Shown: positions 5,528 to 57,319 of the stretch, piece by piece
Layout of the letters: each line of letters starts with the position of its first letter
Position numbering within the stretch: the stretch's first letter is position 1
Assembly: GCA_028708845.1 (NCBI GenBank)
Contig: JAQVXZ010000007.1
Location: 20,898 to 84,897 of the forward strand
DNA: 64,000 nt
Origin: Bacteroidales bacterium
GTDB lineage: Bacteria; Bacteroidota; Bacteroidia; Bacteroidales; P3
Reading direction: 5' to 3'
The notes under the pieces: generated by a model
Seen by the model: the letters and a program-made list of their open reading frames with translations, nothing else
Databases searched by the model: none
Told to the model about the DNA's origin: nothing
Made by a program: the position numbers and the translations under genes

Positions 5528-5563
5528 AAAATAAATTTGAATTCTCAAGTTTTTTTCAATTAA

Positions 5564-15595: not shown

Positions 15596-15614
15596 CTTTA
15601 GCCTATTTTAGCAC

Positions 15615-28166: not shown

Positions 28167-28215
28167 GGTCGAAGGTCGAAGGTCAAAGGTCGAAGGTCTA
28201 AGGTCGAAGGTCTTT
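28160..28215 (+). repeat. 8 x 7-nt tandem repeat GGTCGAA that contains the stop codon of the preceding gene
   Basis: GGTCTAA GGTCGAA GGTCGAA GGTCAAA GGTCGAA GGTCTAA GGTCGAA GGTCTTT. The first unit holds the TAA at 28164-28166. Confidence 0.9.
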
Positions 28216-28236
28216 AAGCTCCTTTTTTTTAATTGT

Positions 28237-28320
28237 TCCGCCTTTCTTTGTTTCACGCCACTAACTCTTGATTTCAGCAGATTAACTCTTGATTCTAGCA
28301 TTTTCTTTCTTCGTTTCGCT
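28237..28320 (+). repeat. 21-bp-period tandem repeat array, locus C (about 4 diverged units; TTCTTCGTTTC sense on the + strand)
   Basis: ttccgcctttctttgtttcacgcc actaactcttgatttcagcag attaactcttgattctagca ttttctttcttcgtttcgc. Confidence 0.7.
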
Positions 28321-30289: not shown

Positions 30290-30369
30290 GAAATTAATAT
30301 CAATTTCGCGACCTAACGAAAATGATATTTTTATTGATAAAAACGATGTATATATACGATTCGACAATT

Positions 30370-30397
30370 GTAGAGACGCGATTAATCGCGTCTCTAC
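30370..30397. repeat. perfect 28-nt palindrome GTAGAGACGCGATTAATCGCGTCTCTAC (copy 1), REP-like
   Basis: Read directly. 12-bp GC-rich stem with a TTAA loop, preceded by CGACAATT. Confidence 0.9.
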
Positions 30398-30486
30398 CGA
30401 CGACAACAACACCTACAATAATTAAAATACGGGTAAAATGATATGCGACAATAATTATATTATGGGTAAAATGATATGCGACAATT

Positions 30487-30514
30487 GTAGAGACGCGATT
30501 AATCGCGTCTCTAC
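30487..30514. repeat. perfect 28-nt palindrome (copy 2), identical to copy 1
   Basis: Read directly. Also preceded by GCGACAATT. The 22-nt sequence gggtaaaatgatatgcgacaat is itself duplicated at 30431-30452 and 30464-30485. Confidence 0.9.
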
Positions 30515-30532
30515 CAAGGACAACAATAAATT

Positions 30533-31789
30533 ATGAATAATTGGGAAAAGGTAACATTAGGGGAGATAATAATATCTGCTAATACTGGATTAGATGCAAT
30601 CAAAAGAGCACCAATTGTAGATATTGATACGGGAATAAAATGTATTAGAATACAAGATATATCTCAATCTAAAAAATATGAAAATTGGGGATACACTAAT
30701 GTTGATGAAAAGAATTTTAAAAAATTCCAATTAAAACAAAATGATATAATAATTGCTAGGACAGGTGCTACTATTGGAGTAAATATTAGAATAAAAAATG
30801 ATTTAAATGCGGTCTATAATAATGGACTAATAAGAATCAGAGTAAATAATCAAATATGTAATCCTATTTATTTATATTATAATATTAGAACATCTAATTA
30901 TTATGGTTTTATTGATTCTATTTCAGGGGGCACTTCATCTCAACCAAATATGCAAATAAATGCATTACTAAGATTTGAAATTAATCTTCCACCTCTTGAT
31001 GAGCAAAAACGTATTGCTGATGTTTTGAGTGCTTTGGATGATAAGATTGAGATAAATAATAAGATTAATGAGAACCTTGAAGCACAAGCACAGGCAATAT
31101 TTAAGCAGTGGTTTGTGGATTTTGAATTTCCAGATCAAGAAGGCAAACCATATAAAACAAATGGTGGAAAATTTATTGATTCAGAATTAGGAGAAATCCC
31201 TTTAGGGTGGAAGATTGATTCTGCTGAAAATATTTTTGACATTTCTATTGGCAAAACACCTCCAAGAAAAGAACCAATTTGGTTTTCAAAAGACAAAATG
31301 GATGTTACATGGGTTTCTATTTCAGATATGGGGAGAGAGGGTGTTTATATATCTAATAGTTCAGAATACTTAACACGTGATGCAATAAAGAAATTTAATG
31401 TTGTAGTAGTCCCTGAAAATACAGTGCTACTAAGTTTTAAGCTAACAGTTGGTAGAATATCAATTACAGATGGTGAAGTAACAACAAATGAAGCAATAGC
31501 GCATTTTAAAACAAATAACAAGACATATACAAATTATATTTATCAATATCTTAAAGTTTATGATTATCAATCAATGGGTAATACTTCTTCAATTGCAAAT
31601 GCAGTTAATTCAAAGATTATTAAAGTAATGAAGATAATATTACCTTCTGATAACATACTGAAAGACTTCTATGATATTGTTAATCCAATAATGATGAGCA
31701 TAAAAAGGAATGAACAAGAAAATAAAACCCTTTCAGAGCTTAGGGATAGTTTGTTGATTAAATTAATGAGTGGGGAGGTTAGAGTATGA
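30533..31789 (+). CDS. hsdS: type I restriction-modification system specificity subunit S
   Basis: Two target-recognition domains separated by the conserved central helix LPPLDEQKRIADVLSALDDKIEINNKINENLEAQAQAIF. C-terminal conserved helix ...LSELRDSLLIKLMSGEVRV. Confidence 0.9.
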   Translation: MNNWEKVTLGEIIISANTGLDAIKRAPIVDIDTGIKCIRIQDISQSKKYENWGYTNVDEKNFKKFQLKQNDIIIARTGATIGVNIRIKNDLNAVYNNGLIRIRVNNQICNPIYLYYNIRTSNYYGFIDSISGGTSSQPNMQINALLRFEINLPPLDEQKRIADVLSALDDKIEINNKINENLEAQAQAIFKQWFVDFEFPDQEGKPYKTNGGKFIDSELGEIPLGWKIDSAENIFDISIGKTPPRKEPIWFSKDKMDVTWVSISDMGREGVYISNSSEYLTRDAIKKFNVVVVPENTVLLSFKLTVGRISITDGEVTTNEAIAHFKTNNKTYTNYIYQYLKVYDYQSMGNTSSIANAVNSKIIKVMKIILPSDNILKDFYDIVNPIMMSIKRNEQENKTLSELRDSLLIKLMSGEVRV

Positions 31790-31790
31790 A
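31759..31790 (+). repeat. direct repeat DR1a (functional hsdS 3' end)
   Basis: taaattaatgagtggggaggttagagtatgaa matches 32740-32771 at 28 of 32 positions. Confidence 0.85.
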
Positions 31791-32691
31791 ATATTATTGT
31801 AATATTAAATTAAATAATGATTATCGTTTTTCTAAAGAAATACTGAATTTTATTCTACCTTTAGAAATTAATACAATAAATGGTATAGTAAACGGTAAGT
31901 TAATTATGCCTAATAGAATTTCAAACAGAGATTTATATTTTGAAAATGATTCAATTAAGATGGATATTGTATATTTAGGTACAGAACTTGAGTCTTTTTT
32001 TTTAATTAATGCAATTTATTGCGAGTTTGAATTAGAAAAAAATGATGAATTAGATTTATACTATGGTATAAGTAATAAGTTGTATAGTTTATCAAATATC
32101 CTTAGATGCTATCCGAAAAATATATTAGATAAATGTTGTTGTTCTGATAATAAAATAAATAAAATTGATTTTAAATTATTTTCAGATGATGGAAAAGAAA
32201 TAAAAGATCAAAAGCTTTACGGGGTAGGATATAAAAACGAAAAAGATTGTATTGATATTTTTATAATACGTCGTATATTGCTTCTATTAAAATATAATGC
32301 TAAACCTAGTATTACATATCAATTATTAAATGAAGCAAAAGATATGGAAGATAATAATGATTATAGACATGCAATTATTAATTGTTGTACAATTTGCGAG
32401 ATTGTTTTTTCAAAATTACTCGTTGATAAATTGACTAAAAATGGTTCTAAGAAGAACGACATAGAGAAAATACTTAATAATATTAATGGAATTGCTGCAT
32501 TAGGAAAATTATTAAAAGAATTTGAAATAAAAACAATTAAAGCTGATTTTGGTAATTTAGCAGGATTAAGAAATAAATCAGCACATATGGGAATTTTACC
32601 AAACAGTGAAGACTGTAGTAAGTATATAAAAGTTTGTGAAGAACTTTTAAAATATCATAGAATTAAGTTTTATAAAATAGAAAAATCATAG
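31786..32691 (+). CDS. uncharacterised 301-aa protein: unknown Cys-rich N-terminal domain plus a C-terminal HEPN-like (Rx4H, DUF4145-like) domain
   Basis: Its ATG overlaps the hsdS stop (ATGA at 31786-31789). The C-terminus has YRHAIINCCTICEIVFSKLL ... LAGLRNKSAHMG (R at 32569-32571, H at 32584-32586). No Walker A motif. Confidence 0.5.
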   Translation: MKYYCNIKLNNDYRFSKEILNFILPLEINTINGIVNGKLIMPNRISNRDLYFENDSIKMDIVYLGTELESFFLINAIYCEFELEKNDELDLYYGISNKLYSLSNILRCYPKNILDKCCCSDNKINKIDFKLFSDDGKEIKDQKLYGVGYKNEKDCIDIFIIRRILLLLKYNAKPSITYQLLNEAKDMEDNNDYRHAIINCCTICEIVFSKLLVDKLTKNGSKKNDIEKILNNINGIAALGKLLKEFEIKTIKADFGNLAGLRNKSAHMGILPNSEDCSKYIKVCEELLKYHRIKFYKIEKS

Positions 32692-32739
32692 AATATGCAA
32701 GAAATACGAACTTCTCATAGATTGAAACTTATTATTGCC

Positions 32740-32771
32740 TAAATTGATGGGTGGGGAGGTTAGGGTGTGAA
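32740..32771 (+). repeat. direct repeat DR1b: relic of an hsdS 3' end (reads ...LLLPKLMGGEVRV-stop)
   Basis: taaattgatgggtggggaggttagggtgtgaa. The frame is closed 10 codons upstream, so it is a remnant and not a gene. Confidence 0.8.
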
Positions 32772-32856
32772 TTTAAAATTATAAAAATTGATGCAGATTA
32801 TACTAATGTATTATAGAAAATTAATTCCGCAATTGTACAATTAAAAATATACTATT

Positions 32857-33582
32857 ATGAATGAAGAAAAAATTGAAGAAAAAGTTGAAAAGCTTTTAAA
32901 TTGTAAAGAAACCACGAGAATATTTGGATATTCAGAGAGAGGAATATTAAATTCTTTAATGTTTGAAATTAGCAAAGATAAAAAGTTAATGATTGAGTTT
33001 TTGAAACTGCTCCCTGAAGAAATAGCGGTAAAAATCGGAACTCCAGCTTGTTTTAAAATCCTTCTTGATCATTCTTTATCTGGTTTTGGCAGTCCAGACT
33101 TGATTGTTATTGCTCATTATATTAAGCCTGAAGATAAAAAAGTAATATTTTTGGAAGCAAAGGTGCAAACTTTAGGTCATCAAAATTGGAATTTACAAGC
33201 TCTTTATGATAATTATGTTGGTGTTAGTGTAGATAATTATAAGCAACGGAAAATGGGTTCTAATCTATTTTTTCAATTAAAACTCAAAAGGTCCTTAGTT
33301 GAAAACCTAGATACAATTAGAGAAAATAACCTAATAGAAGTTGGAGTAGTAAGTAAAAAAATAGGTAATAATGCAATAGTGTTAAGGACTGTAGATATGA
33401 TTGATTATGCAGCTGAGTATTTTTATGTTGGAATTGTTCCTCACTGTAATTTTAGTCAAAGTGAGGAGGATAAAGAAAAATATAATTTTTTATTATGGAA
33501 AGATATTGAAAAATTTTGTGAGAAGAATAAATTGCAAAATGTACTGGACATGTTTGATTATAATAAAGGACAGATATATTAG
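32857..33582 (+). CDS. uncharacterised 241-aa protein with a PD-(D/E)xK nuclease-like motif set
   Basis: SERGILNSLMFE (helix Glu) ... GFGSPDLIVIAHY ... KKVIFLEAKVQT (D at about 33097, E-A-K at about 33154). The perfect palindrome AATTGTACAATT sits at 32830-32841 upstream. Confidence 0.45.
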   Translation: MNEEKIEEKVEKLLNCKETTRIFGYSERGILNSLMFEISKDKKLMIEFLKLLPEEIAVKIGTPACFKILLDHSLSGFGSPDLIVIAHYIKPEDKKVIFLEAKVQTLGHQNWNLQALYDNYVGVSVDNYKQRKMGSNLFFQLKLKRSLVENLDTIRENNLIEVGVVSKKIGNNAIVLRTVDMIDYAAEYFYVGIVPHCNFSQSEEDKEKYNFLLWKDIEKFCEKNKLQNVLDMFDYNKGQIY

Positions 33583-33606
33583 TAGCCGATAAATCCAATG
33601 CAACAT

Positions 33607-33636
33607 AACGCTATTTTGGAGATATTCAAAGATAAT
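33607..33636 (+). repeat. direct repeat DR2a: relic of an hsdR 5' end (reads MQHNAILEIFKDN...)
   Basis: aacgctattttggagatattcaaagataat matches 35486-35515 inside the hsdR start at 28 of 30 positions. Confidence 0.85.
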
Positions 33637-33716
33637 AGATGCTTAGTAGTTTAGAGAATGAGCACAATGTTAAAAAAGCTTTATTTTTAGTCGAATATTC
33701 TTTGGTTTTAGCAATC

Positions 33717-33760
33717 AGTCCTAAATATTGGCAAAACTTGGGACTTAAATAATGTTAAAT
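33717..33760 (+). promoter_or_regulatory. 44-nt repeat unit R1 upstream of abiEi (candidate operator)
   Basis: agtcctaaatattggcaaaacttgggacttaaataatgttaaat contains the inverted half-sites AGTCC...GGACT. A related copy lies at 33800-33843 and a partial one at about 33690. Confidence 0.4.
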
Positions 33761-33799
33761 TTGTGAGATTATAGTTTATTTTCGTTGTTTTCATTGGTT

Positions 33800-33843
33800 A
33801 GTCCGAAATATTGTATAAATTTGCGACTTAATAATTGTTAAAT
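33800..33843 (+). promoter_or_regulatory. 44-nt repeat unit R2 overlapping the abiEi promoter (candidate operator)
   Basis: agtccgaaatattgtataaatttgcgacttaataattgttaaat. It ends 3 nt before the abiEi ATG. Confidence 0.4.
33816..33823 (+). promoter_or_regulatory. -7 box TAAATTTG for abiEi-abiEii
   Basis: 23 nt upstream of the ATG at 33847. Confidence 0.45.
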
Positions 33844-33846
33844 ATT

Positions 33847-34458
33847 ATGAGTGTTAGTATTTTTGATACTGTAAGAAAATTAGTTTTGGAGAAAGAAATG
33901 GGAGAAATTCTATTTGTTTCTGATTTTTCTCATCTTAATGATGATGAGTCTGTAAACAAAATTCTATCAAGATTGGTTCATGAAGGGAGATTGGAAAGGA
34001 TATCGAGAGGTATATATTTAAAGGCTAAGAAGACTGATTTCGGTTCTTTAATTCCTTCTTTGGATGAAATTGCACATGCTATTGCTAAGAGGGATAAGGT
34101 TAAGATATTCCCTTCTGGCAATACTGCTCTAAATATGTTAGGCTTAAGCACTCAAGTTCCAATGGTTGCTGAATATATTACAACAGGATCTACAAGAACG
34201 GTTAAGGTTGGAAAAAGAAAAATTGTTTTCTCTAATTCTACTCCTAAAAACTTTGAATATAAAAATGAATTGATTCATCTTATTGTTGTTGCAATGAAGA
34301 AGATTGGGCAGAAAAATATAAGTGATGAGGATATTGAGGTTATTCAGAATTTACTTTCTGATAGGGATAGTATAGAGAACTGGAAAGAGGACATTCAACT
34401 TGCTCCTGTGTGGATAAGGAAGATAATAATAAACTTAATTGAAAATATTGAGCTATGA
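33847..34458 (+). CDS. abiEi: AbiEi-family type IV antitoxin / transcriptional regulator
   Basis: N-terminal winged-helix segment ...VNKILSRLVHEGRLERISRGIYLK. It overlaps the downstream AbiEii gene by 4 nt. Confidence 0.75.
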   Translation: MSVSIFDTVRKLVLEKEMGEILFVSDFSHLNDDESVNKILSRLVHEGRLERISRGIYLKAKKTDFGSLIPSLDEIAHAIAKRDKVKIFPSGNTALNMLGLSTQVPMVAEYITTGSTRTVKVGKRKIVFSNSTPKNFEYKNELIHLIVVAMKKIGQKNISDEDIEVIQNLLSDRDSIENWKEDIQLAPVWIRKIIINLIENIEL

Positions 34459-35447
34459 GTTTGTGGATTAATCTTGGATTGGATGAGAGAAAAGTACTTA
34501 TTCAACAAACAGCAGAAAAAGAAGGAATACCTGATTTGGCAGTGGAAAAAGACTGGTGGGTTACTATTGTTTTGAAAGCTTTGTTTTCTTGTTCTTGCAA
34601 TAAGCATCTATTGTTTAAAGGTGGAACTTCATTAAGTAAGGGCTGGAATATTATAGAAAGGTTTTCAGAAGATATTGATATTGCTTTGGATAGGTCGCGC
34701 TTTGCCTTAGCTTGCGATAACCGTACCCAAATAAATATTCTTAGAAAAGAGTCAAGAGTTTTTATTGAGAAAGAATTAATGCCAGAGTTAAATAAAAATC
34801 TCATAGCTTTGGTGGGAAATGAAACTTTCGAGATTGAATTTATTGAAAATATCAACTCAACAACTGATCCTACTGTGATTAATGTTGTTTATAAAAGTAT
34901 TTTAGATAATAGGGTTGAGTATATTAAGAATATAGTAAAGATTGAAATTAGTTGTTTGTCTCTTTCTGACCCTAATGAAAAGAGGGATATTTCCTCGCTT
35001 ATATATAAGTATTATCCGAATGTTGATAATGATTCTTCTTGTCAGATTAATACCGTTTTACCTCAAAGAACCTTTTTAGAAAAAATCTTTCTACTTCATG
35101 AGGAGTTTCAAAAACCAAACCCCAGAACTGAGAGAATGTCAAGGCATTTATATGATTTAGAGAAGTTGATGCAGATTAAAGAAGTGATAGTGTCCTTGAA
35201 TGATATGGTACTATACAATACTATTGTTGAACATCGAAAGAAGTTTAATAAGATAAGCAGTGTTGTTAATTCTCTTTATTCACCAGAAAAGATTAATATT
35301 ATTCCCCCTGATTTGATTTATAAGGATTGGGAAAAGGATTATTCAGATATGAAAAAATCATTTATTTATGGTGATTCTCTTAGTTTTGCAAAGCTTATTG
35401 AAAGGATAAGAGAGCTTCAAGATATAATACGTAATTTAGAAAACTAA
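34455..35447 (+). CDS. abiEii: AbiEii/AbiGii-family nucleotidyltransferase toxin
   Basis: NTase signature LLFKGGTSLSKGWNIIERFSEDIDIALD, and C-terminal RHLYDL. Confidence 0.85.
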   Translation: MSLWINLGLDERKVLIQQTAEKEGIPDLAVEKDWWVTIVLKALFSCSCNKHLLFKGGTSLSKGWNIIERFSEDIDIALDRSRFALACDNRTQINILRKESRVFIEKELMPELNKNLIALVGNETFEIEFIENINSTTDPTVINVVYKSILDNRVEYIKNIVKIEISCLSLSDPNEKRDISSLIYKYYPNVDNDSSCQINTVLPQRTFLEKIFLLHEEFQKPNPRTERMSRHLYDLEKLMQIKEVIVSLNDMVLYNTIVEHRKKFNKISSVVNSLYSPEKINIIPPDLIYKDWEKDYSDMKKSFIYGDSLSFAKLIERIRELQDIIRNLEN

Positions 35448-35458
35448 ACTAACCGCCT

Positions 35459-38400
35459 ATGACCTTTTCTGAGAACAATTTTGAGAACGCTATTTTGGAG
35501 ATATTTAAGGATAATCTTGGATATCAGTATTTCTATGGTCCTGATGTTAAGAGGGATTTCCAATCTCCATTTCATGAGGATTTGCTTGTGGGGTCTTTGT
35601 TTGAGATAAACTCTATGTTACCTAAGGAAGCCATTAATGAGGCTATTTATAAGCTGAAGAATGTGGAGACTGGCACTTTGGTGCAGAGAAATATTAGGTT
35701 TATGGATATGCTTCAGAATGGGGTGGAGGTTAATTATTATGATGGTAAGGAGCAGAGGTCATCGAGGGTGAAGCTAGTGGATTTTGAGAATGTGGATAGG
35801 AATATCTTTTCGGTAGCTAATCAATGGACTTTTGAGGAGTTTTCTCTTAAGAGGGCAGATATTATTGTTTTTGTTAATGGTCTGCCGCTTGTTGTGGTGG
35901 AACTTAAATCGCCTTCGAGACAGGAAACTGATGTTAGTGCTGCGTATAGGCAACTTAGAAATTATATGAAAGAGATTCCTTCTTTGTTTGCCTTTAATGC
36001 TTTTGTGGTTATGAGTGACCAGGCGTTTTCTAAGGCTGGGACTATTACGGCAAGTGAGGATAGGTTTATGGAGTGGAAGACTGTGGATGGTGGGTATGAG
36101 AATACTAAGCACGCTAGTTTCGATACTTTGTTTGAGGGTATGTTTGAGAAGAGGAGGTTATTGGATATTATTCAAAACTTTATTTGTTTTTCTAAGCAGG
36201 GTAAAGAGGAGGCTAAGATTTTGGCTGGTTATCATCAATATTATGCTGTTCGTAAGGCTATTAGTTCTACGGAAAAGGCTGTATTGTCTGATGGGAAGGG
36301 TGGAGTTTTTTGGCATACTCAAGGGAGTGGTAAGTCGCTGTCGATGGTCTTTTATGCTAAGCTTTTGCAGGAGAGTTTGAACTCGCCTACTATTGTGGTT
36401 ATTACGGATAGGAATGATTTGGATGATCAGCTTTTTTCTCAGTTTGCTTCTTGTCAGGATTTCCTTCGTCAAGTGCCTGTTCAAGCTCAGTCACGATCTC
36501 ATCTTACTCAGCTTTTGAATGGGAGAAAGGCTAATGGGATTTTCTTTTCCACTATGCAGAAGTTTGAGCAGGGGAGTGAACCACTTTCTGAGAGAAGGAA
36601 TATTATTGTTGTGGCTGATGAGGCTCACCGTAGCCAGTATGGTTTGGAGGAGAGGATTACTAAGGAGGGTGAGATTAAGATTGGGGCGGCTCGGATTATT
36701 CGTGATTCTCTGCCTAATGCTACATTTATTGGTTTTACCGGTACTCCTATTTCTTTAAAAGATAGGTCAACTCGTGAGGTATTTGGTGATTATATTGATG
36801 TTTATGATATGACTCAGTCGGTGGAAGATGGGGCAACTCGTCCTGTCTTTTATGAGAGTAGGGTTATTAACTTGAAGCTTAATGACGAGGTTTTAAGGCT
36901 TATTGATGATGAGTATGATAGGCTGGCAGATGAGGCTGAGGGTTATGCTATTGAGAGGAGTAAGAGGAGTTTGGGGCGTTTGGATAGCATATTAGGGAGT
37001 GATAAGACGATTGAGAGTTTGTGTGATGATATTCTTATTCATTATGAGGAGTGTCGTCAGTATGAACAGACAGGTAAGGCTATGATTGTTGCTTATTCGA
37101 GGGAGATTGCACTTAAGATTTATCATAGGTTACTTTTTTTAAGACCTTCTTGGACTGATAAGGTGGCGGTTGTGATGACTTCTTCGAATGATGACCCTGA
37201 AGAGTGGAGGGAGATTATTGGCAATAAAACGCATAAGGATGAGCTTGGAAGGAGGTTTAAGGATAATGAGGATAGCCTGAAAATTGCTATTGTTGTGGAT
37301 ATGTGGCTTACTGGTTTCGATGTTCCTTCGCTTTCTACTATGTATGTTTATAAGCCTATGAGGGGACATAATCTTATGCAGGCTATTGCTAGGGTTAATA
37401 GGGTTTATAAGGATAAGCAAGGGGGTTTGATTGTGGATTATGTTGGGATAGCTTCTGCTTTGAAACAGGCTATGAATGACTATACCAAGAGAGACCAATC
37501 GAATTTTGGAGAACAGGATATTGCTAAGACTGCTTATAGGGAGTTTAGGAATAAGTTAATGGTTTGTAGGGACCTTATGCATGGGTTTGACTTTGGAGGT
37601 TTTCTTACGGCAACAGATCTTGAGAGGGCTAAGCTTATAAGTGGTGCTGTTAACTTTCTGTCTGACAAAAGGAGAGAGGAAACAAAAAAGACATTTATTA
37701 AGGAGGCGCTACTGCTTCATAATTTCTTATCGCTTTGCAAGAGTATTGTTGAGTATGATGATAGGATTGAGGCGGCATATTTTGAGGCTGTGAGGACTTT
37801 GATAACAAGGGTTTTGTCTCCTGGAAAGATTTCTCTAAGGGAGATAAACCAAAGGGTTAATGATCTACTTTCTCAGAGCATTAAGAGTGAGGGGGTGATT
37901 AATTTATTTTCCGATTTTGAGAAAGAGTTTTCGCTTTTCGACCCTAAGTTCTTGGAGGATATTCGAAATATGAAGGAGAGGAATATTGCTATTGAGCTTT
38001 TGAAGAAGTTGATTGCTGAGCAGGTTCATGTTTATCAGAGGACTAATGTTGTTAAGAGTGAGAAGTTTTCGGATATGTTATCTAATGCTATGAGTAATTA
38101 TTTGAAAGGACTACTTACTAATGAAGAGGTTATTCAGGAACTTATTAGTATGGCTCATCAGATTATGAATGCCGATAAGGAAAATTCTGAACTAGGTTTG
38201 AGTAGTGAGGAGCAGGCTTTCTATGACGCCTTAACTAAGCCTGAAAATGTGAAAGATTTCTTTGAAAATGACCAGCTAATTGCTATCACAAAAGAGCTTA
38301 CAGAGGCTTTGCAGAAAAATAAGACAATTGATTGGCAGAAGAAAGAAACAGCAAGAGCAGGTATGAGGAGGATTATTAAGAGGCTTTTGAAGAAATACAA

Positions 38401-38476
38401 CTACCCACCAGAAAAAACCGATGATGCATTGGAAACGATTTATCGTCAGTGTGAGATGTGGGCAGATAATTTGTAA
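35459..38476 (+). CDS. hsdR: type I restriction endonuclease subunit R
   Basis: N-terminal nuclease motif ADIIVFVNGLPLVVVELKS, helicase motif I TQGSGKS, motif II VADEAHRSQ, motif VI QAIARVNR, and a C-terminal HsdR helical domain. Confidence 0.95.
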   Translation: MTFSENNFENAILEIFKDNLGYQYFYGPDVKRDFQSPFHEDLLVGSLFEINSMLPKEAINEAIYKLKNVETGTLVQRNIRFMDMLQNGVEVNYYDGKEQRSSRVKLVDFENVDRNIFSVANQWTFEEFSLKRADIIVFVNGLPLVVVELKSPSRQETDVSAAYRQLRNYMKEIPSLFAFNAFVVMSDQAFSKAGTITASEDRFMEWKTVDGGYENTKHASFDTLFEGMFEKRRLLDIIQNFICFSKQGKEEAKILAGYHQYYAVRKAISSTEKAVLSDGKGGVFWHTQGSGKSLSMVFYAKLLQESLNSPTIVVITDRNDLDDQLFSQFASCQDFLRQVPVQAQSRSHLTQLLNGRKANGIFFSTMQKFEQGSEPLSERRNIIVVADEAHRSQYGLEERITKEGEIKIGAARIIRDSLPNATFIGFTGTPISLKDRSTREVFGDYIDVYDMTQSVEDGATRPVFYESRVINLKLNDEVLRLIDDEYDRLADEAEGYAIERSKRSLGRLDSILGSDKTIESLCDDILIHYEECRQYEQTGKAMIVAYSREIALKIYHRLLFLRPSWTDKVAVVMTSSNDDPEEWREIIGNKTHKDELGRRFKDNEDSLKIAIVVDMWLTGFDVPSLSTMYVYKPMRGHNLMQAIARVNRVYKDKQGGLIVDYVGIASALKQAMNDYTKRDQSNFGEQDIAKTAYREFRNKLMVCRDLMHGFDFGGFLTATDLERAKLISGAVNFLSDKRREETKKTFIKEALLLHNFLSLCKSIVEYDDRIEAAYFEAVRTLITRVLSPGKISLREINQRVNDLLSQSIKSEGVINLFSDFEKEFSLFDPKFLEDIRNMKERNIAIELLKKLIAEQVHVYQRTNVVKSEKFSDMLSNAMSNYLKGLLTNEEVIQELISMAHQIMNADKENSELGLSSEEQAFYDALTKPENVKDFFENDQLIAITKELTEALQKNKTIDWQKKETARAGMRRIIKRLLKKYNYPPEKTDDALETIYRQCEMWADNL
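35486..35515 (+). repeat. direct repeat DR2b (functional hsdR 5' end)
   Basis: aacgctattttggagatatttaaggataat; partner of 33607-33636. Confidence 0.85.
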
Positions 38477-38550
38477 GGGGAGAATGAGGAGAAAAAAAGA
38501 CGACATCGGGTTATGGACATCGTCTAAATTGTAGTCGTTTAGTAAAGCTT

Positions 38551-38802
38551 TTAATTTACTATCAGCTTCTTAGTTTGATTCAATACTTTAACCTGATAAA
38601 TACCTTTTGCAAAGCTTGTTAAATCAATGCTCAACTGTGTTTGGTTTGGTTGTAGGTTATAGGTCTTTACTTTTCTTCCTGTGATATCATATACAAACAC
38701 GTCAGCAGATTTTGTTAGTCCTTCTACTTCTAATATTGCACTGCCTGTGGTTGGGTTAGGGTATAGCTTTGTTTGTGTTTCTGTGATAAGGATATCGTTT
38801 AG
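38551..38802 (-). repeat. near-identical 3' segment shared with the neighbouring LRR paralog (copy 1)
   Basis: About 250 nt encoding the T9SS CTD, almost base-for-base identical to 39688-39939. The LRR bodies are much more diverged. Confidence 0.85.
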
Positions 38803-39666
38803 GTCAGATTCACATGTTATATTGGTAAATTCACTCCAATAATCAGCAGCTTGATATGCAGCTATGGATGCACAAGGTACGTAAACTGGTATTGTCCTGG
38901 ATACAAGCAAAAATGAACTATCTTGAATGCTTGGAGGGATTAAGGCATTGGAGGTTATTGAGCTTAAGCCAGTACATTTATTAAAAGCCAACGTTTTAAT
39001 TGTAGTAACTGAATTAGGAACGATTAAGGATGTTAGTCCAATACATCCTTCAAAAGCTTTTTCTCCAATTGTAATAAGAGAATTAGGAAGAGTTATGGAT
39101 GTTAAACTTCGACAGTTTAAAAAAGTTTGGTATTCAATTGTTGTGAGAGAATTAGGAATATTTATTGATGTTAGTTCTATACAAAACCTAAAAGCTCCGT
39201 CTCCAATTGAAGTAACAGAATTTGGAATTGCTATGGATGATAATTCATAACAGCCTGAAAAAGCATATTTTCCAATTGAAGTAACAGAAATAGGAATGGT
39301 TATTGATGTTAAACCATGACAATCATAAAAGCCCCAAGATCCAATTGAAGTAACAGAATTAGGAATTACAACTGATCTTATGCTATCACAATTATAAAAA
39401 GCTTTCTCTCCAATTGATGTTACAGAATATGTATTTCCATTATGTTCTACTGTATTTGGAATTGTTATATCTCCAACGAGATCTAATAAGTTATAAGGAT
39501 GAGTATTTAATTGATAAGTAACCTCTACCTCATAAGGAGCAGTATCTGATGTTATTTTAAAATAGAAGGTTTGACCATTGCTTACGGCAGAAAAATCATA
39601 AGCTTGAACTTTTGCAGAAACTCCTATTAAGAGAATTGCAAAAATAATAAGTAATCTTTTTTTCAT
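38551..39666 (-). CDS. BspA-type leucine-rich-repeat surface protein with a T9SS C-terminal sorting domain
   Basis: Signal peptide MKKRLLIIFAILLIGVSAKVQA. About 8 repeats of IPNSVTSIG..AF..C..LTSI. CTD KLYPNPTTGSAILEVEG...GIYQVKVLNQTKKLIVN. Confidence 0.85.
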   Translation of the reverse strand: MKKRLLIIFAILLIGVSAKVQAYDFSAVSNGQTFYFKITSDTAPYEVEVTYQLNTHPYNLLDLVGDITIPNTVEHNGNTYSVTSIGEKAFYNCDSIRSVVIPNSVTSIGSWGFYDCHGLTSITIPISVTSIGKYAFSGCYELSSIAIPNSVTSIGDGAFRFCIELTSINIPNSLTTIEYQTFLNCRSLTSITLPNSLITIGEKAFEGCIGLTSLIVPNSVTTIKTLAFNKCTGLSSITSNALIPPSIQDSSFLLVSRTIPVYVPCASIAAYQAADYWSEFTNITCESDLNDILITETQTKLYPNPTTGSAILEVEGLTKSADVFVYDITGRKVKTYNLQPNQTQLSIDLTSFAKGIYQVKVLNQTKKLIVN

Positions 39667-39687
39667 GATGTTTTGATTTTTATGGGT

Positions 39688-39939
39688 TTAATTTATTATC
39701 AGCTTCTTTGTTTGGTTTAATACCTTTACTTGGTAAATGCCTTTTGCAAAGCTTGTTAAATCAATGCTCAAATGTGTTTGGTTTGGTTGTAGGTTATAGG
39801 TCTTTACTTTTCTTCCTGTGATATCATATACAAACACGTCAGCAGATTTTGTTAGTCCTTCTACTTCTAATATTGCACTGCCTGTTGTTGGGTTAGGGTA
39901 TAGCTTTGTTTGTGTTTCTGCACTTAGGATATCGTTTAG
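39688..39939 (-). repeat. near-identical 3' segment shared with the neighbouring LRR paralog (copy 2)
   Basis: See 38551-38802. Confidence 0.85.
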
Positions 39940-40940
39940 TCCAACAAAGCATTGGTAGTTAGTAAATGCAATCCAATTAGCAGCAGCTTGATAAGCATCT
40001 ATAGATTCACAAGGCACATAAACTGGGATTGCACTTGGTATTGAGAAAAATGAATTCCACTGAGCTGTTGGAGGTATAATAGCATTAGAGGTAATTTGGG
40101 TTAAGCCACTACAATTACCGAAAGCAGCATTTCCGATAGAAGTTACTGTGTTTGGAAGGGTGATTGAATCTAAGCTAGTACAGTCTATAAAAGTATTATC
40201 TTCAATTGTAGTAATGCTGTTTGGTAGGGTAACGGATGTTAAACTGCTACAAGCTCTAAAACATTCTAATCCTACTGAAGTAACAGCATTTGGAAATATT
40301 ACTGATGTTAAGTTAGTACAGAACTCAAAAGTTCTTTCACCTATGGTAGTAACAGAACTAGGAATTATTATTGATGTTAAACTAGAACATCTAGAAAATG
40401 TAGCTTTGCCTATGGATGTAATAGCATTAGGTAGTGTAATAGAAGTTAAATCAGAACAGCCTGAAAAAGCCCACTCATCAATTGAAGTAATAGAATTAGG
40501 TAGGGTGATGGATGTTAAGCTGGTGCAACTTGAAAAACAACTACTACCTATTGAGGTAACAGAATTAGGAATTGTTATTGATGTTAAAGCACTGCATAAT
40601 ACAAATGCTCCTTTTCCAATTGAAGTAATAGAGTTTGGAATTACAAATGAGTCAACATTACTATATCCAGAAAAAGCATTGTCTCCAATTGCAGTAACAG
40701 CATATGTGTTTGTATTGTATTCTACTGTTGCTGGAATTATCCTAGATCCTGCGGAATGTATTGGGTTGTAAGGATAGTCTACATTTTGGCTTGCAACCTC
40801 TACCGTATAAGGCGCAGTAGCGGATGTGATTTTAAAATAGAAGGTCTGACCGTCGCTCACGGCAGTGAAATCATAGTTTTGTGCATTTGCTGTAAATCCT
40901 ACCAGGATAATTGCAAGAATAATAAGTAATCTTTTTTCAT
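39688..40940 (-). pseudogene. BspA-type LRR / T9SS-CTD paralog whose start is out of frame because of a 1-nt shorter poly(A) tract (possible phase-OFF state)
   Basis: ATG at 40938-40940 followed by A6 (T6 at 40932-40937) gives MKKDYLLFLQLSW-stop. With A7, as in the paralog at 39659-39665, it would read MKKRLLIILAIILVGFTANAQNYDFTAVSDGQTFYFK in frame with the 390-aa ORF listed at 39688-40860. Confidence 0.7.
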
Positions 40941-43063: not shown

Positions 43064-44911
43064 CTAACTATTCATACTTGCGAAAAACTCGTCGTTATTC
43101 CTTGTGTTTTGTACTTGTTTTCTAATAAATTCCATTGCCTCAATAGGGTTCATATCTGCTAAGTAGTTACGCATAATGCCCATTCTTCCAACGATAGAGC
43201 TTTCTAATAATAGGTCTTCTCTACGGGTTGAAGATGAAACAAGGTCAATTGCTGGGTAGATACGTTTGTTTGATATCTTTCTGTCAAGTTGAAGTTCCAT
43301 ATTACCGGTACCCTTAAACTCTTCAAAAATTACTTCGTCCATCTTAGAACCTGTTTCAATAAGAGCTGTTGCAATAATTGTTAGAGATCCTCCTCCTTCA
43401 ATGTTTCTTGCTGCTCCAAAGAATCGTTTTGGTTTTTGAAGTGCATTAGCCTCAACTCCTCCTGAAAGAACTTTTCCAGATGATGGTGCTACGGTATTAT
43501 ATGCTCTTGCTAAACGTGTGATTGAGTCAAGAACAATAACCACATCGTGACCACATTCTGTCATTCTCTTTGCTTTTTCAAGAACTAGGTTAGCAATCTT
43601 TACGTGTCTATCTGCTGGCTCATCGAAGGTTGATGCAATTACTTCTGCATTAACTGTTCTTCGCATATCGGTTACTTCCTCAGGTCTTTCGTCAATAAGT
43701 AGTACTATAAGATATACCTCAGGGTGGTTTGCAGATATTGCGTTTGCTATTTCTTTTAAAAGAGTTGTCTTACCTGTTTTTGGTGGTGCAACAATTAAAG
43801 CACGTTGCCCTTTTCCAATAGGGGTAAATATATCGATTATTCTTGTTGAAATACTTTCTAATTTATGTCCTGTTAGTTGGAATTTCACTTCTGGGAACAA
43901 TGGGGTAAGGTAATCGAAAGGTACCCTATCTCTTATTTGGTCAGTTGTTCTACCATTAATAAGTTCTGCTCTAACAAGTGGGAAGTATTTCTCTCCGTCC
44001 TTTGGTGGACGAATAAATCCTGAAACGGTGTCTCCTGTCTTTAGACCAAATAGCTTAACTTGTGTTTGTGAAACGTAGATATCATCAGGAGAGTTAAGGT
44101 AATTATAGTCAGATGAACGTAGGAAACCATATCCGTCAGGCATTATCTCCAATACTCCTTCAGAATTAATTAGACCTTCTTTTTCGAAGTTATAAGTAAC
44201 TTTAGAAGCTTGGGTTTGTTGTGAAGAGGTATTATCGGAACTTCCTTCTGATCTGTTTCCCTCTGGTACTTCATTTTTCTCAGCCTTAGCAATCTTTGGT
44301 ATTTCTTTCTTAGGTTGAGCCTTGGTAGTATCTTCTTTTTCAATTTCTTTGTTTTCTTCTAATGGCGTTCCTACAGGTAATAGCTTAGTGTTTTCTTTAT
44401 CTATCTCTATTTCCTTTGTTGGAGCCTTGGGCTTAATCTCTGATACCTTTAAGTCCTCAAGAGAAGGAACTTCTGGAATTTCAGGTATAACAAATTCAGA
44501 TATTTCTATACTGGCAATATCCTTGCTTGCTTTTTCAACCTGCTTAGGTTTTTTCTCATCAGTCTTAGTTGTAGTAGTTTTCTTAACTTCTGTCTTCTTT
44601 GTTTCTGTCTTCTTTGCCTCTGTTTTCTTAGGTTCAGCTTTCTTGTCCTCTGTCTTTTCTTTTGGGGTGGTTTTAGATCCACCTACATTTGATTCTGCAA
44701 CTGGCTTTGGTTTTAGCCTCGTTCTTTTTGGTGCCTTTGCTGCCTTTTCTTGTTCAATATCTTCTTTTCTCGGGTTTGCTGCCTGATGATCTAATATTTT
44801 GTAGATAAGGTCTTGTTCCTTAAGTTTATTAGTTTTAGGTATTGATAGCTCCTCAGCAATAGATTTTAACTCTTCTAAAGATTTTGTGTCTAATTGAGAT
44901 TTGTTATACAT
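43064..44911 (-). CDS. rho: transcription termination factor Rho with a long low-complexity N-terminal insertion
   Basis: N-terminal [13 protein letters not shown], an insertion of about 200 aa rich in K/E/T/P, then an RNA-binding domain and an ATPase ([12 protein letters not shown] loops). Confidence 0.95.
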
Positions 44912-49788: not shown

Positions 49789-50472
49789 ATGATGAAAAAG
49801 ATAATATTATTCTTGGCTCTTGTTTTATCCTCAGCCTCTCTTATGGCTCAGGAAAAGGAAGTGCTTATTTCTGAAGATTCTATAATAAGTAAAGATTATA
49901 CGTATGACTTCATAAATCAAGCCTCTTCACCTCTTCAATATAATATATCAATGGGAGCAAATTTTGGAAGCGGATTCTTCGGTCAGAGTTTTACTTCCAC
50001 CTATGTAGCACCATCACTTAGAATAAGATTAAACCAAAAGACCCATCTTAGAGCAGGAGCTTTGACAGGAGATCTTTGGTTAAATGGTGGCTCAAAAAGA
50101 AATACAGTAAACGATAGAGCACCTTATGCCGATAGATATAAACATAGCGCAGCCTATATGGGGATGGATTTTGAGTTAAGCCCAAAGTTAAATCTTTTTG
50201 TAACTGCATTCTACGACACATATAACCCCTTAAGAACTCAGAGCCTACGTCCACAATCACAAAACATATACACATACGGTTTTGACGCAAGTTTAACTTA
50301 TGAAATTTCTAAGAATAGTTTTTTGAATCTTAGTGTGTCATTTATGGAGACCAATAATCCATATATGTTGTTAATGCCCTATCATCACTCACCCTTCAAC
50401 TCAATGGGGCTGATGAATAATACCCTTTTCCCTGGTTCAAGATTCCCAAACCATAGTCCTTTTTCTTGGTAG
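49789..50472 (+). CDS. hypothetical secreted protein, possibly an outer-membrane beta-barrel
   Basis: Signal peptide MMKKIILFLALVLSSASLMAQ and strand-like segments. Confidence 0.5.
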   Translation: MMKKIILFLALVLSSASLMAQEKEVLISEDSIISKDYTYDFINQASSPLQYNISMGANFGSGFFGQSFTSTYVAPSLRIRLNQKTHLRAGALTGDLWLNGGSKRNTVNDRAPYADRYKHSAAYMGMDFELSPKLNLFVTAFYDTYNPLRTQSLRPQSQNIYTYGFDASLTYEISKNSFLNLSVSFMETNNPYMLLMPYHHSPFNSMGLMNNTLFPGSRFPNHSPFSW

Positions 50473-50494: not shown

Positions 50495-50634
50495 AATGAA
50501 ACGCAGAGTTAGGAAAATGAAACGCTGTAATAAATAATTAAAACTAAGAGTTAGCAAATTAAAACGAAGAGTTAAGAAATTAAAACGAAGAAAGAATTTG
50601 CTGAAACGAAGAAAGAATTTGCTGAAATGAAGAC
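50495..50634 (-). repeat. 21-bp-period tandem repeat array, locus D (about 6.5 units)
   Basis: aatgaaacgcagagttaggaa aatgaaacgctgtaataaata attaaaactaagagttagcaa attaaaacgaagagttaagaa attaaaacgaagaaagaatttgct gaaacgaagaaagaatttgct gaaatgaagac. It lies between convergent genes. Confidence 0.85.
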
Positions 50635-50668
50635 TTAATTATTAAATTCTTCCCAGAAATAATCTTCC

Positions 50669-51325
50669 TTATAGTTTTCTGCCCATCATTAGCCCATCCC
50701 TAATTGGTATTATAACATTTTCTACTCTTGGGTCATGGGTTATTAATTCGTTAAAGTTATTAATGGCAAGGGTTTGCTTGTCTCTTGGCATTGGGTCGAG
50801 TCCTACTTTCCCGTACCAAAGAATATTGTCGGCAATAATTATTCCAGAGGGGCGTAATTTCTCAATGCAGATATTATAATATTCAGGGTAGGAGGCTTTG
50901 TCGGCATCAATAAATATTAAATCAAATTCTTCTTCTATGGTTGGCAGTATATCTAGGGCTTTCCCAATATGTAGTTTAATTTTTTTGTTGGAACGTTTAA
51001 TTAGATTTTCTAAAAGGAAGTCCTCGTATTCTTCTTCTTTCTCTATGGTGTGAATAATTCCTCCTTCTTGTAATCCCTCTGCAAGGCAAAAGGTGGAATA
51101 TCCGCTAAATGTTCCTATTTCAAGAATGTTTTTAGGGTTAACCATTTTAGAAATCAACTTTAAGAAAGTTCCTTGCCAATTACCACTAATCATATGTGGA
51201 TGAACAAATCGCAATTGTGTCTTACGATTAAGCCTTACCAAGTCTTCTGGTTCTTCACTTACATTCTTTTCGCAGTAATCCACTATTCTCTTATCAATAA
51301 ATGGAGATATTTGTAATTCAGTCAT
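50669..51325 (-). CDS. class I SAM-dependent O-methyltransferase (caffeoyl-CoA OMT family)
   Basis: ILEIGTFSGYST (motif I), IFIDADK, and IIADNILW. Confidence 0.85.
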   Translation of the reverse strand: MTELQISPFIDKRIVDYCEKNVSEEPEDLVRLNRKTQLRFVHPHMISGNWQGTFLKLISKMVNPKNILEIGTFSGYSTFCLAEGLQEGGIIHTIEKEEEYEDFLLENLIKRSNKKIKLHIGKALDILPTIEEEFDLIFIDADKASYPEYYNICIEKLRPSGIIIADNILWYGKVGLDPMPRDKQTLAINNFNELITHDPRVENVIIPIRDGLMMGRKL

Positions 51326-56157: not shown

Positions 56158-57078
56158 ATGACAAAAGTATTAGTAGCAACCGACAAACCATTTGCAAAAG
56201 CAGCGGTTGACGGAATAAGAAATATAGTAGAAGGAGCAGGCTTTGAACTAGCTCTTTTAGAAAAATATACAGACGTTAATGACCTATACAAAGCAGTAGC
56301 TGATGTAGATGCATTAATCGTTCGTTCAGATAACGTTACAAAAGAAGTTATCGATGCAGCAAAAAACCTTAAAATTGTAGTAAGAGCAGGAGCAGGATAC
56401 GATAATCTTGACCTTGAAGCTTGCACAGCAAGAGGAATTGTTGCAATGAACACACCAGGACAAAACTCAAACGCAGTTGCAGAACTTGCAATAGGTATGA
56501 TGATCTATATGGCTCGTACTTGCTTTACACCAGCAACAGGATCAGAACTTATTGGAAAGAAACTTGGTATCCACGCTTACGGTCACGTAGGTCGTTTAGT
56601 GGCTACAAAGGCAAAAGCAATGGGAATGGAAGTTTGGGCATTTGACCCATTCGTACCAGCAGAACAAATGAAAGCAGACGGAATAACAGTAGCTTCAACA
56701 ATAGAAGAACTTTATTCAAACTGTAACTATGTATCTCTTCATATCCCAGCAACAGAACAAACAAAGAAATCAATTAACTTCGACTTGCTTTCAAAAATGC
56801 CTAAGGGTGGATGTTTGATAAACACAGCTCGTAAAGAAGTTATTGACGAACAAGGAATGGTTAAATTGCTAACAGAAAGAACAGATTTAAAATACTGTAC
56901 AGATATTCCTGCTTCAAACCAAGAAGAATTAAATCAATTTGCACCAAGAGTTTTTGCATCACCAAAGAAAATGGGAGCACAAACAGCAGAAGCAAACCTA
57001 AATGCAGGAATTGCAGCTGCAAACCAAATTGTATCTTTCATCAAAGACGGAGTAACTAAATTTAAAGTTAACAAGTAG
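56158..57078 (+). CDS. serA: D-3-phosphoglycerate dehydrogenase (short form, no ACT domain)
   Basis: 2-hydroxyacid dehydrogenase motifs GIHAYGHVGRLVA (NAD-binding), SLHIP, and NTARKEVID. It sits immediately downstream of serC. Confidence 0.85.
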   Translation: MTKVLVATDKPFAKAAVDGIRNIVEGAGFELALLEKYTDVNDLYKAVADVDALIVRSDNVTKEVIDAAKNLKIVVRAGAGYDNLDLEACTARGIVAMNTPGQNSNAVAELAIGMMIYMARTCFTPATGSELIGKKLGIHAYGHVGRLVATKAKAMGMEVWAFDPFVPAEQMKADGITVASTIEELYSNCNYVSLHIPATEQTKKSINFDLLSKMPKGGCLINTARKEVIDEQGMVKLLTERTDLKYCTDIPASNQEELNQFAPRVFASPKKMGAQTAEANLNAGIAAANQIVSFIKDGVTKFKVNK

Positions 57079-57109: not shown

Positions 57110-57141
57110 AAGGCAATTCATTTATTTGAGTTGCCTTTTTT
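57110..57141 (+). terminator. intrinsic terminator after serA
   Basis: AAGGCAA-loop-TTGCCTT followed by a T-run. It runs straight into the 21-bp array. Confidence 0.65.
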
Positions 57142-57265
57142 CTTTCTTCGTTTCAGCAAATTACTTCTTCGTTTCACGAAATTCTTTCTTCGTTTCAGCA
57201 GATTAGTTCTTCGTTTTAAGAAATCCTTTCTTTGTTTCAGTAAATCCTTTCAGCAATTCAAGAAA
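57140..57265 (+). repeat. 21-bp-period tandem repeat array, locus E (6 units of exactly 21 nt)
   Basis: ttctttcttcgtttcagcaaa ttacttcttcgtttcacgaaa ttctttcttcgtttcagcaga ttagttcttcgttttaagaaa tcctttctttgtttcagtaaa tcctttcagcaattcaagaaa. Confidence 0.9.
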
Positions 57266-57311: not shown

Positions 57312-57319
57312 TACTTTTG
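57312..57319 (+). promoter_or_regulatory. -7 box TACTTTTG
   Basis: 21 nt upstream of the ATG at 57341. Confidence 0.45.

Follow-up and report, generated by a model that had tools for sequence, protein, structure and literature searches.

We analysed a 64,000-nt stretch of a Bacteroidales bacterium genome (NCBI GenBank assembly GCA_028708845.1, contig JAQVXZ010000007.1, positions 20,898 to 84,897 of the forward strand; henceforth the window, meaning this whole stretch), in which a first-pass annotation made from the letters alone had pointed to five loci with head-to-tail repeats of about 21 nt. The window has a G+C content of 30-39% and encodes type IX secretion system (T9SS) C-terminal sorting domains, and the top matches to its serA-like and RicT-like proteins are in metagenome-assembled genomes (MAGs) named Bacteroidales bacterium. 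GCA_028680715.1 and several ENA and Logan assemblies also contain the same locus. The repeat arrays, numbered 1 to 5 along the window, are listed in Table 1 together with the genes, terminator and promoter motifs beside them and a set of comparable repeats from sister loci.

All five arrays lie at the places first proposed and all five are intergenic. Array limits were read in register, with the strand given as the one that reads the core AAACGAAGA, and this shifted them slightly (array 5, for example, runs from 57133 to 57258). The exact core occurs 16 times in the window compared with 0.58 expected (100 dinucleotide shuffles; shuffle maximum 2), and 14 of these 16 copies fall inside the five arrays at a spacing of exactly 21 nt. 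Tandem Repeats Finder (TRF) reported a period of 21 with 0% indels at 4523-4621, 15495-15565, 50536-50633 and 57140-57251, and an alternative period of 42 nt at loci 1 and 5. Altogether the arrays hold some 27-29 units, in agreement with the 28 or so that had been claimed, and 24 of them have a recognisable core. The six 21-nt units of array 5 were likewise recovered, as were both of the unit subtypes described earlier, AAACGAAGAGTTAnnAAATTA and AAACGAAGAAAGAATTTGCTG.

The arrays differ in how regular they are. Array 1 ends in a palindromic unit (TAAAACCTTGTTTTA; 4616-4630), which holds the stop codon of the gene at 4628-5548 (-). The first unit of array 2 (AAACGCAGAGTTAGGAAATTA) is the same as the first unit of array 4, and its fifth unit is the palindromic TGAAACGAAGTTTCA. 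Array 3 is the most degenerate of the five and has a single exact core. Within the window the exact palindrome TRAAAC-N3-GTTTYA is found in arrays 1 and 2 only. We also built a position-weight matrix from the 24 units and used it to scan the window for solo units, which gave 6 matches outside the arrays versus 5.6 in shuffles; units thus occur only inside arrays and nowhere else in the window above chance. In an all-against-all BLAST of the five spacers, similarity was confined to the unit arrays, and no leader or tail was found.

Table 1. Repeat arrays of the window, neighbouring genes and motifs, and 21-22-nt repeats at sister loci
Feature	Position	Strand	Description
Array 1	4513-4638; 4492-4638 with degenerate unit 4492-4512	+	five 21-nt units, 4513-4617
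Array 2	15474-15599	+	six units; array end 15 nt from stop of 15615-16076 (-) gene
Array 3	28233-28316	-	four degenerate units; cores AAACGAAGA, GAATCAAGA, AAATCAAGA, AAACAAAGA
Array 4	50499-50645	+	seven units, between convergent genes 49789-50472 (+) and 50669-51325 (-)
Array 5	57133-57258	-	array singled out in the first-pass annotation; six units, five with core and one degenerate; 42-nt higher-order period
Gene	4628-5548	-	306 aa, no Pfam match; stop codon inside last unit of array 1
Gene	15615-16076	-	153 aa, no Pfam match; stop faces array 2
Gene	26904-28166	+	SDH_alpha/UPF0597-type (Pfam), upstream of array 3
Gene	50669-51325	-	O-methyltransferase (Pfam); stop faces array 4
Gene	56158-57078	+	D-3-phosphoglycerate dehydrogenase-like (serA-like), upstream of array 5
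Terminator-like hairpin and T-run of serA-like gene	57110-57145; hairpin 57110-57137	+	AAGGCAATTC...GAGTTGCCTT
TAnnTTTG match	57312-57319	+	TACTTTTG, 21 nt before ATG 57341 of T9SS/fn3 gene
TAnnTTTG match	4453-4460	-	TACCTTTG, upstream of TrkH gene (ATG 4433); kept in L241
Sister-locus repeat	L225 575-797		AAAAAAATCCTAACGCCTATTG; period 22 nt, 8.6 copies
Sister-locus repeat	L225 11559-11636 and L240 14782-14836		TAGAATCAA..., variant of core seen in array 3
Sister-locus repeat	L239 14236-14309		TTAAGGAAAAAAGTTTTTTA
Sister-locus repeat	L240 14105-14205		AAAGAGCCTGATTTTTTGAAG, begins directly after PBP stop codon

The arrays lie close behind genes, at distances of about 0-6, 15, 66, 24-35 and 54 nt from the stop codon at loci 1 to 5, respectively. 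Array 5 starts in or at the T-run of the serA-like terminator hairpin, and arrays 3 and 5 are both preceded by a T-run (at locus 3 a T8 run 3' of the upstream gene); no terminator-like hairpin was found between stop codon and array at loci 1-4. The -7 promoter box of Bacteroidota has the consensus TAnnTTTG, and matches to it are found downstream of arrays 1 and 5 (the ATG at 57341 is the start of the T9SS/fn3 gene called in public assemblies). With a hairpin before it and a -7 box after it, array 5 is thus placed after a terminator and ahead of the promoter that follows; array 1 is situated between a stop codon and the match at 4453-4460, and given the boxes downstream of both, arrays 1 and 5 fill the space between a gene end and the next promoter. 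In the arrays themselves no sigma-70-type promoter stood out, and by eye there was no TAnnTTTG box inside the units. A separate heptamer repeat (AGGTCGA/AGGTCTA, 7.7 copies; 28159-28212) runs from the stop of the SDH_alpha/UPF0597-type gene to the T8 tract before array 3, and contig NODE_650 of ERZ4218736, from the same species, seems by coordinate arithmetic to end near it.

We found the arrays to be weakly structured, with minimum free energies of -2 to -26 kcal/mol and z-scores between -2.6 and +1.8. As RNA, the T-rich strand has a composition of U 0.42-0.51, C 0.16-0.25 and G 0.08-0.12 and folds weakly (-2 to -18 kcal/mol; z-scores -2.2 to +1.8); in the window it is U-rich and unstructured with more C than G, in line with the U/C-rich, G-poor tract described earlier. 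Rfam gave 0 matches at gathering thresholds over the whole window on both strands, and there was no tRNA or tmRNA in the window, so we rejected a known RNA family or a tRNA-derived sequence as the source of the units.

The first-pass annotation had further proposed that the arrays are locked in orientation to the 3' side of genes, with the T-rich strand as the sense strand. Within the window this holds for all five arrays, i.e., the T-rich strand (TCTTCGTTT) is sense for the gene that ends towards the array. At locus 4, between convergent genes, the rule holds trivially, and the informative count is therefore four out of four (two-sided binomial p = 0.125; p = 0.0625 for five out of five). For the family as a whole the rule failed: among the matches listed outside the window, co-directional spacers of relatives contained 16 arrays with the A-rich strand as sense (A-sense) and 8 with the T-rich strand as sense (T-sense), and another 8 arrays lay between convergent and 5 between divergent genes, all with crude gene calls (longest open reading frames of at least 70-100 aa). 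Pooling the listed matches with the window gave 16 A-sense versus 12 T-sense arrays (p = 0.57). An orientation lock is not a property of this repeat family, and location 3' of a gene is automatic for any co-directional or convergent spacer. A T-sense bias in the window's own lineage is suggestive, but the window had been flagged because of this same pattern, and the rule in its species is drawn from n = 5 arrays. Both orientations occur within the 64 kb (the AAACGAAGA strand is + at loci 1, 2 and 4 and - at loci 3 and 5), and we discarded a replication-oriented motif of the KOPS or Chi type on this account.

To place the arrays in a wider context, we searched a single genome of each species for pairs of cores at a distance of 21 nt, which gave at least 114 stretches. 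Among the matches listed, these formed two classes, namely coding heptad repeats and intergenic arrays in Bacteroidales. The coding repeats (NEELQS-type heptads in unrelated phyla) accounted for about half of the matches listed and were set aside as chance. The intergenic arrays came from Bacteroidales MAGs with many matches per genome, including at least 12 tiles in Candidatus Scybalousia scybalohippi, at least 13 in the termite-gut Hm464_bin38 and at least 8 in Candidatus Onthomorpha; UBA4893, UBA5371, AS08sgBPME_458 and a Bacteroidaceae MAG were further carriers among the matches listed. A subtype-specific scan of metagenomes added 8 more loci or contigs, all from other species. The consensus of 175 pooled units is T(A/G)AAACGAAGA-n-(T/A)TA-n-TTT(A)-n-T(A/G), which we divide into a box, T(A/G)AAACGAAGA-n-(T)TA, and a variable spacer of 8-9 bp. 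Information content in these 175 units was 1.3-1.9 bits per position in the box and at most 0.7 bits over most of the spacer, a contrast that is inflated because the loci were found through the core.

Arrays of the relatives comprised 3-7 units, with one of 11 units that did not count as family by the TRF filter. They were often bracketed by the palindromic unit TRAAAC-N3-GTTTYA or by the inverted unit TCTTCGTTT, and where A units give way to T units an 11-bp hairpin arises with a T-run behind it. Four Scybalousia loci have arrays with an odd unit (GTTACGCCAGCG) and a leader-like unit (ACATCAAAT) in common. Hm464_bin38 additionally contains a repeat of about 38 nt (GTCGGCAACCGACTTTTATT..CCTAACGGAAGTCTGG; L097 1329-1620 and L100 1380-1445), found as inverted copies flanking 21-nt arrays and also in tandem, which may be a REP- or MITE-like element (i.e., resembling repetitive extragenic palindromes or miniature inverted-repeat transposable elements). 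Mobile replicons yielded nothing comparable: the periodic pattern hit only coding or low-complexity sequence in 2.9 million viral contigs, and BLAST of array 4 against plasmid and phage collections returned no match. We thus dropped a phage or plasmid origin.

We next consider how the arrays vary between lineages. In assemblies of the same species the arrays at loci 2, 4 and 5 were identical (array 2 in two other assemblies, arrays 4 and 5 in three others), and a hypervariable contingency locus was rejected given that arrays were identical in all of them. Short-read contigs end inside arrays, array 5 included, as expected for multi-copy DNA. The closest separate lineage, L241 (GCA_947631795.1), is 90-94% identical to the window across 20 kb and keeps arrays at loci 1 and 2. 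Compared with the window, its locus 1 is exactly 42 nt (2 units) shorter and its locus 2 exactly 84 nt (4 units) shorter, with flanks that align in both cases and, at locus 2, one unit plus the terminal unit left. A comparison of array copy number between strains, suggested in the first-pass annotation, thus gave a split result: arrays are identical among same-species assemblies, and the roughly 92%-identical L241 has exactly 2 and 4 units fewer.

More distant sisters lack the arrays. These have the same gene order, and were taken from species whose serA-like protein is 92% (L224), 85% or 82% identical, or whose RicT-like protein is 85% or 81% identical. Within the syntenic 20 kb, L224 has no exact core, each of L225-L228 has a single core standing alone and no array, and no cores were found at the syntenic sites of L239 and L240. 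The convergent spacer of locus 4 measures 196 nt in the window but 43 nt (L224) and 21 nt (L225) in the sisters. At locus 5 the serA terminator hairpin and T-run are kept in L224 and L225 without an array, and the next promoter follows directly. Arrays are therefore absent at syntenic loci 1, 4 and 5 in sister species. No target-site duplications were seen at the junctions in the sister and L241 comparisons. That an array can persist is seen in two orthologous pairs among the metagenome loci.

Units also appear to have moved between loci. Specifically, loci 2 and 4 have a three-unit block in common (72 nt at 92% identity) besides their identical first units, and the extra locus 2 units of the window relative to L241 include both the array-4-like first unit and the 72-nt block. 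As these array-4-like units are absent from locus 2 of L241, copying between loci is indicated. The units common to four Scybalousia loci also count as evidence of such copying. L241 in turn carries an extra 268-nt insert after the penicillin-binding-protein (PBP) gene, composed of palindromic-type units and a second 21-nt family. This insert is bracketed by a duplication of about 110 nt of the PBP gene 3' end (14058-14546 with the insert), the downstream copy being the more diverged; this arrangement is not the signature of cut-and-paste transposition.

Repeats with the same period and different units are found in the same clade. We examined tandem repeats with a period of 12 or more and 2.3 or more copies at sister loci that had been chosen by protein homology, and so without bias for period, and found that 5 of 13 have a period of 21 or 22, all five of them intergenic (Table 1). 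Another intergenic 21-22-nt repeat occupies about 14230-14290 of L241, and some such sister repeats lie just past the same PBP stop codon. In the Bacteroidales loci selected by pattern, 19 of 37 non-family arrays have a period of 21-22, a set that is selection-biased along with its control. Tandem repeats of 22, 23 and 41 nt occur in Porphyromonas gingivalis (PMC4596501). Because the differing units (TTAAGGAAAAAAGTTTTTTA, AAAGAGCCTGATTTTTTGAAG, AAAAAAATCCTAACGCCTATTG, TAGAATCAAGAG and others) are all 21-22 nt long and intergenic, and because P. gingivalis has families of 22 and 23 nt, the feature that is selected or generated could be the 21-bp phasing itself and not the sequence. A putative dedicated protein would then make or maintain arrays on two helical turns as part of a Bacteroidales-wide system, in which lineage-specific boxes would be its recognition sites and the arrays would serve as chromosomal platforms for bending, insulation or termination. 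We regard this as unlikely.

We instead favour, with a probability of roughly 0.6, the interpretation that the arrays are a non-coding dispersed minisatellite family of Bacteroidales, i.e., repeat DNA that is tolerated, and not a conserved signal for gene control. In its support we count the changes in length by whole units, the blocks common to different loci, the presence or absence between species, the restriction to intergenic DNA and the indifference to orientation across the family. Length changes would come about by replication slippage or unequal recombination, and spread and homogenisation between loci by ectopic recombination, by gene conversion or through a putative mobilising protein that recognises the box. 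Arrays would persist where they are harmless, namely in the stretch that separates a stop codon or terminator from the promoter that follows, and selection would remove those landing in genes or promoters. No host function would be needed, and any effect on neighbours would be secondary; such effects may include an AT-rich box recurring in phase with two helical turns, a U-rich 3' tail that is not translated or the terminator-like hairpin at A-to-T junctions.

Several observations weigh against this interpretation. The box of 11-13 nt is constant across genera while the spacer is lineage-specific, which points to sequence-specific recognition or selection and away from drift alone, and in the orthologous array of L216 and L223 the array is about 85% identical compared with 74% for the adjoining coding sequence. 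The sole gain of an array seen between close lineages, that in L241, is accompanied by the gene-end duplication of about 110 nt, and we found neither a transposase (20 window proteins were scanned) nor terminal repeats or a short target duplication that would account for new loci. The indifference to orientation depends on the crude gene calls in relatives, and the window, with 0 A-sense versus 4 T-sense arrays, differs from those relatives (Fisher p = 0.024). Furthermore, 3 or 4 of the 5 upstream genes have no recognisable intrinsic terminator, which leaves room for a local role of the arrays.

The likeliest of the alternatives is a role at the level of DNA. The arrays could be iteron-like phased platforms, on which a putative Bacteroidales DNA-binding protein recognises T(A/G)AAACGAAGA, half of TRAAAC-N3-GTTTYA, on one helix face every 21 bp; the bound array could bend or insulate the spacer or regulate a neighbouring promoter, and the same protein could propagate the arrays. 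Such a platform fits the strict period of 21 bp without indels, the conservation of the box across genera next to a spacer free to vary and the confinement of fully palindromic units to arrays, and it would account for the indifference to orientation in the family and for the recurrence of 21-22 nt in the clade's other arrays of differing units. We still consider it rather unlikely, seeing that no candidate protein was found, that arrays are missing at the syntenic sites of sister species, that unit number is free to change between close lineages (1 vs 5 and 3 vs 5), and that the box/spacer contrast is in part an effect of ascertainment. Moreover, arrays that number five in 64 kb and have neither a rep nor a par gene in their vicinity are not replicon iterons or centromeres, and there was no plasmid or phage match. 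A role in RNA seems to us improbable. Here the T-strand transcript past the stop codon, unstructured, U/C-rich, G-poor and with regular YC dinucleotides, would act as a Rho-utilisation (rut) tract that loads Rho and ends the transcript. All window arrays are T-sense for the upstream gene, their composition and weak folding suit Rho, the arrays at loci 1, 2 and 4 begin 0-35 nt past the stop, loci 1-4 show no intrinsic-terminator-like hairpin, and the window itself contains a Rho gene. By contrast, 16 of 24 co-directional arrays in the family (among the matches listed) have the opposite sense and would give A/G-rich RNA, some arrays lie between divergent genes, a conserved intrinsic terminator already precedes the array at locus 5, and the same genes have no array in sister species or only 1-3 units in L241. 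The C content is modest, and the four informative window arrays are not significant by themselves (p = 0.125). Rho could possibly act on the arrays, though only as a lineage-specific side effect. The Rho gene (43064-44911, -) encodes 615 aa with an insertion of about 200 aa between Rho_N and the RNA-binding domain, which we take to be the ordinary form in Bacteroidota and not, as remarked earlier, an unusual Rho. Tandem repeats of 15 nt and 30 nt are found in the insertion region (44587-44656).

The remaining alternatives concern the origin and the coding capacity of the arrays. They may be eroded elements of the type known as BrickBuilt in P. gingivalis, whose leader, tail and terminal repeats have decayed in the window genome. 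This would be in keeping with the P. gingivalis elements, which often lack one or both ends and vary by whole units (PMC4596501), and with the inverted repeats of about 38 nt around the arrays of Hm464_bin38 (L097, L100), but those repeats may equally be an independent element inserted nearby. Nothing outside the units is common to the five window loci, no target-site duplications were seen, and terminal inverted repeats of the IS5-like 12-bp kind (GAGACCTTTGCA type, at most 2 mismatches) were at chance level in the window (8 matches vs 4.8 expected) with none at an array, making erosion of such an element highly improbable. Finally, the arrays might be small genes for highly basic heptad peptides, with frame 1 of the A strand reading KRRVxKL or KRRKNLL. 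Of the A-strand frames, frame 1 alone is free of stops in the consensus unit; loci 2 and 4 have an ATG ahead of their first unit, and the variants AAACGCAGA and AAACGGCGT likewise translate as KRR. However, about one open frame in six is expected for an AT-rich 21-mer (our own estimate), loci 1, 3 and 5 have no start codon, the frame is interrupted by stops within arrays 4 and 5, L241 does not keep the stop that follows array 2, and the gene callers of public assemblies call no gene at the arrays. We rejected peptide coding, which is close to refuted.

If the arrays are indeed tolerated minisatellites, they amount to a high-density and previously undescribed repeat family in uncultured Bacteroidales of guts and digesters. 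With an array every 13 kb or so, as here, a genome of 2.7 Mb would hold some 200 arrays, a figure that is an extrapolated estimate and not a count. The arrays would break short-read assemblies at predictable places, and they would offer markers of the variable-number tandem repeat kind that separate lineages about 92% identical and are stable within a species. They also make a tractable case of a minisatellite that has no transposon ends and yet turns up at new loci, and the fact that the box is conserved and that periods of 21-22 nt recur in sister families hints that a trans-acting factor is involved. As it stands, the finding does not reveal a new regulatory mechanism.

The window has other repeats and gene arrangements that we record here. 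A 190-aa gene at 14354-14926 (-), about 550 nt from array 2, has a weak, below-threshold match to a resolvase N-terminal domain (E = 2.9e-4), and no link between this gene and the arrays was found. A defence island at 28787-38476, which starts about 470 nt past array 3, comprises type I restriction genes (hsdM, hsdS, hsdR) and an AbiEii toxin gene, and GC skew is unusually high in this region (0.29-0.30 in two 4-kb windows over 32001-40000). Between hsdM and hsdS (30359-30526) lie two copies of a 51-nt repeat, each with a perfect 28-nt palindrome (GTAGAGACGCGATTAATCGCGTCTCTAC), and between both copies a 33-nt tandem repeat (30415-30485). Two tandem TrkH paralogues at 1444-4433 (-), with stretches 76-84% identical, keep this arrangement in L241. 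The 5' end of the RicT/YaaT (PSP1) gene carries an in-frame 15-nt tandem repeat (GATAATAGAAGACGT, 3.9 copies; 10105-10162), and in sister species the homologous proteins are shorter by 21-28 aa, with a query coverage of only 84-92%. At 38551-40860 (-) there are two adjoining BspA-type leucine-rich-repeat proteins with T9SS sorting tails, whose genes are built from coding repeats of 69 nt (12 copies) and are almost the same at their ends (94% identity over 253 nt).

We compared the arrays with repeat systems known from other bacteria, starting with those defined by function. Rut sites consist of untranslated RNA, some 70-80 nt long, that is unstructured, rich in C and poor in G. The T-strand RNA of the arrays would be similar in being unstructured, U/C-rich and G-poor over 85-147 nt directly past a stop codon; rut sites, by contrast, are not repeated families with a conserved box, and orientation in the present family is not tied to transcription. 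Plasmid iterons and parC-type centromere repeats are contiguous direct repeats of 17-22 bp on a period of 21-22 bp that places them on the same helix face, and the window arrays share the direct repeats and the period of about 21-22 bp. Iterons and centromere repeats are nevertheless found as a single cluster at one locus per replicon, beside rep or par genes and an AT-rich or DnaA-box region, and are bound by a cognate initiator or adaptor protein, whereas here five loci within 64 kb of chromosome adjoin unrelated genes (TrkH, O-methyltransferase, serA-like and others) and have no plasmid match.

Among dispersed extragenic repeats, REP sequences and BIMEs are imperfect but stable palindromes 35-40 nt long that often alternate in orientation, and they are linked to the RAYT transposase. 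They, ERIC sequences and the pneumococcal BOX elements resemble the arrays in being high-copy and extragenic, situated at gene 3' ends and in intercistronic spacers, modular (boxB of BOX is tandemly variable) and disruptive to short-read assembly. Their basis is a palindrome, whereas the arrays consist of direct repeats in which an AT-rich palindrome generally spans 6 bp at most; only some terminal units form palindromes of 15 bp. Mycobacterial interspersed repetitive units (MIRUs) consist of units of 46-101 bp, lie inside operons in gene orientation and contain small open reading frames that overlap the flanking stop and start codons. As with the arrays, they are dispersed intergenic minisatellites in short co-directional spacers, with one unit family at many loci and lineage differences of whole units; the arrays differ in their 21-nt units, in the mixed orientation of the family and in having no conserved open reading frame.

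BrickBuilt of P. gingivalis is closest in kind to the window arrays, and MIRUs are also near. Consistent with the earlier remark that the repeat was not recognised as a described family, we did not find it described; the literature gave only BrickBuilt as an analogue in kind, and a query with the sequence gave only primers. BrickBuilt (along with PgRS/MITE464) is a minisatellite inside a MITE of the IS5 type, and the BrickBuilt unit is 23 nt (Klein et al. 2015, PMC4596501). It occurs as about 20 dispersed copies, always intergenic and often beside terminators, in which the leader and tail can be about 300 nt long and end in IS5-like terminal inverted repeats of 12 bp, with occasional target duplications, and its arrays reach 22.8 units (PMC4596501). 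The likeness is one of kind, taken from the published description (in which the 23-nt unit is shown only as a figure): both belong to the same bacterial order, both consist of head-to-tail units of about two helical turns (23 vs 21 nt) without spacers between units, and both have units with a conserved and a variable half, intergenic location, variation by whole units, a limited host range and no Rfam match. The leader, tail and IS5-type terminal repeats of BrickBuilt are absent from the window arrays, which, unlike BrickBuilt, fold weakly. The arrays of the present family are also smaller, at 3-7 units, and their density is far higher, with five arrays in 64 kb.

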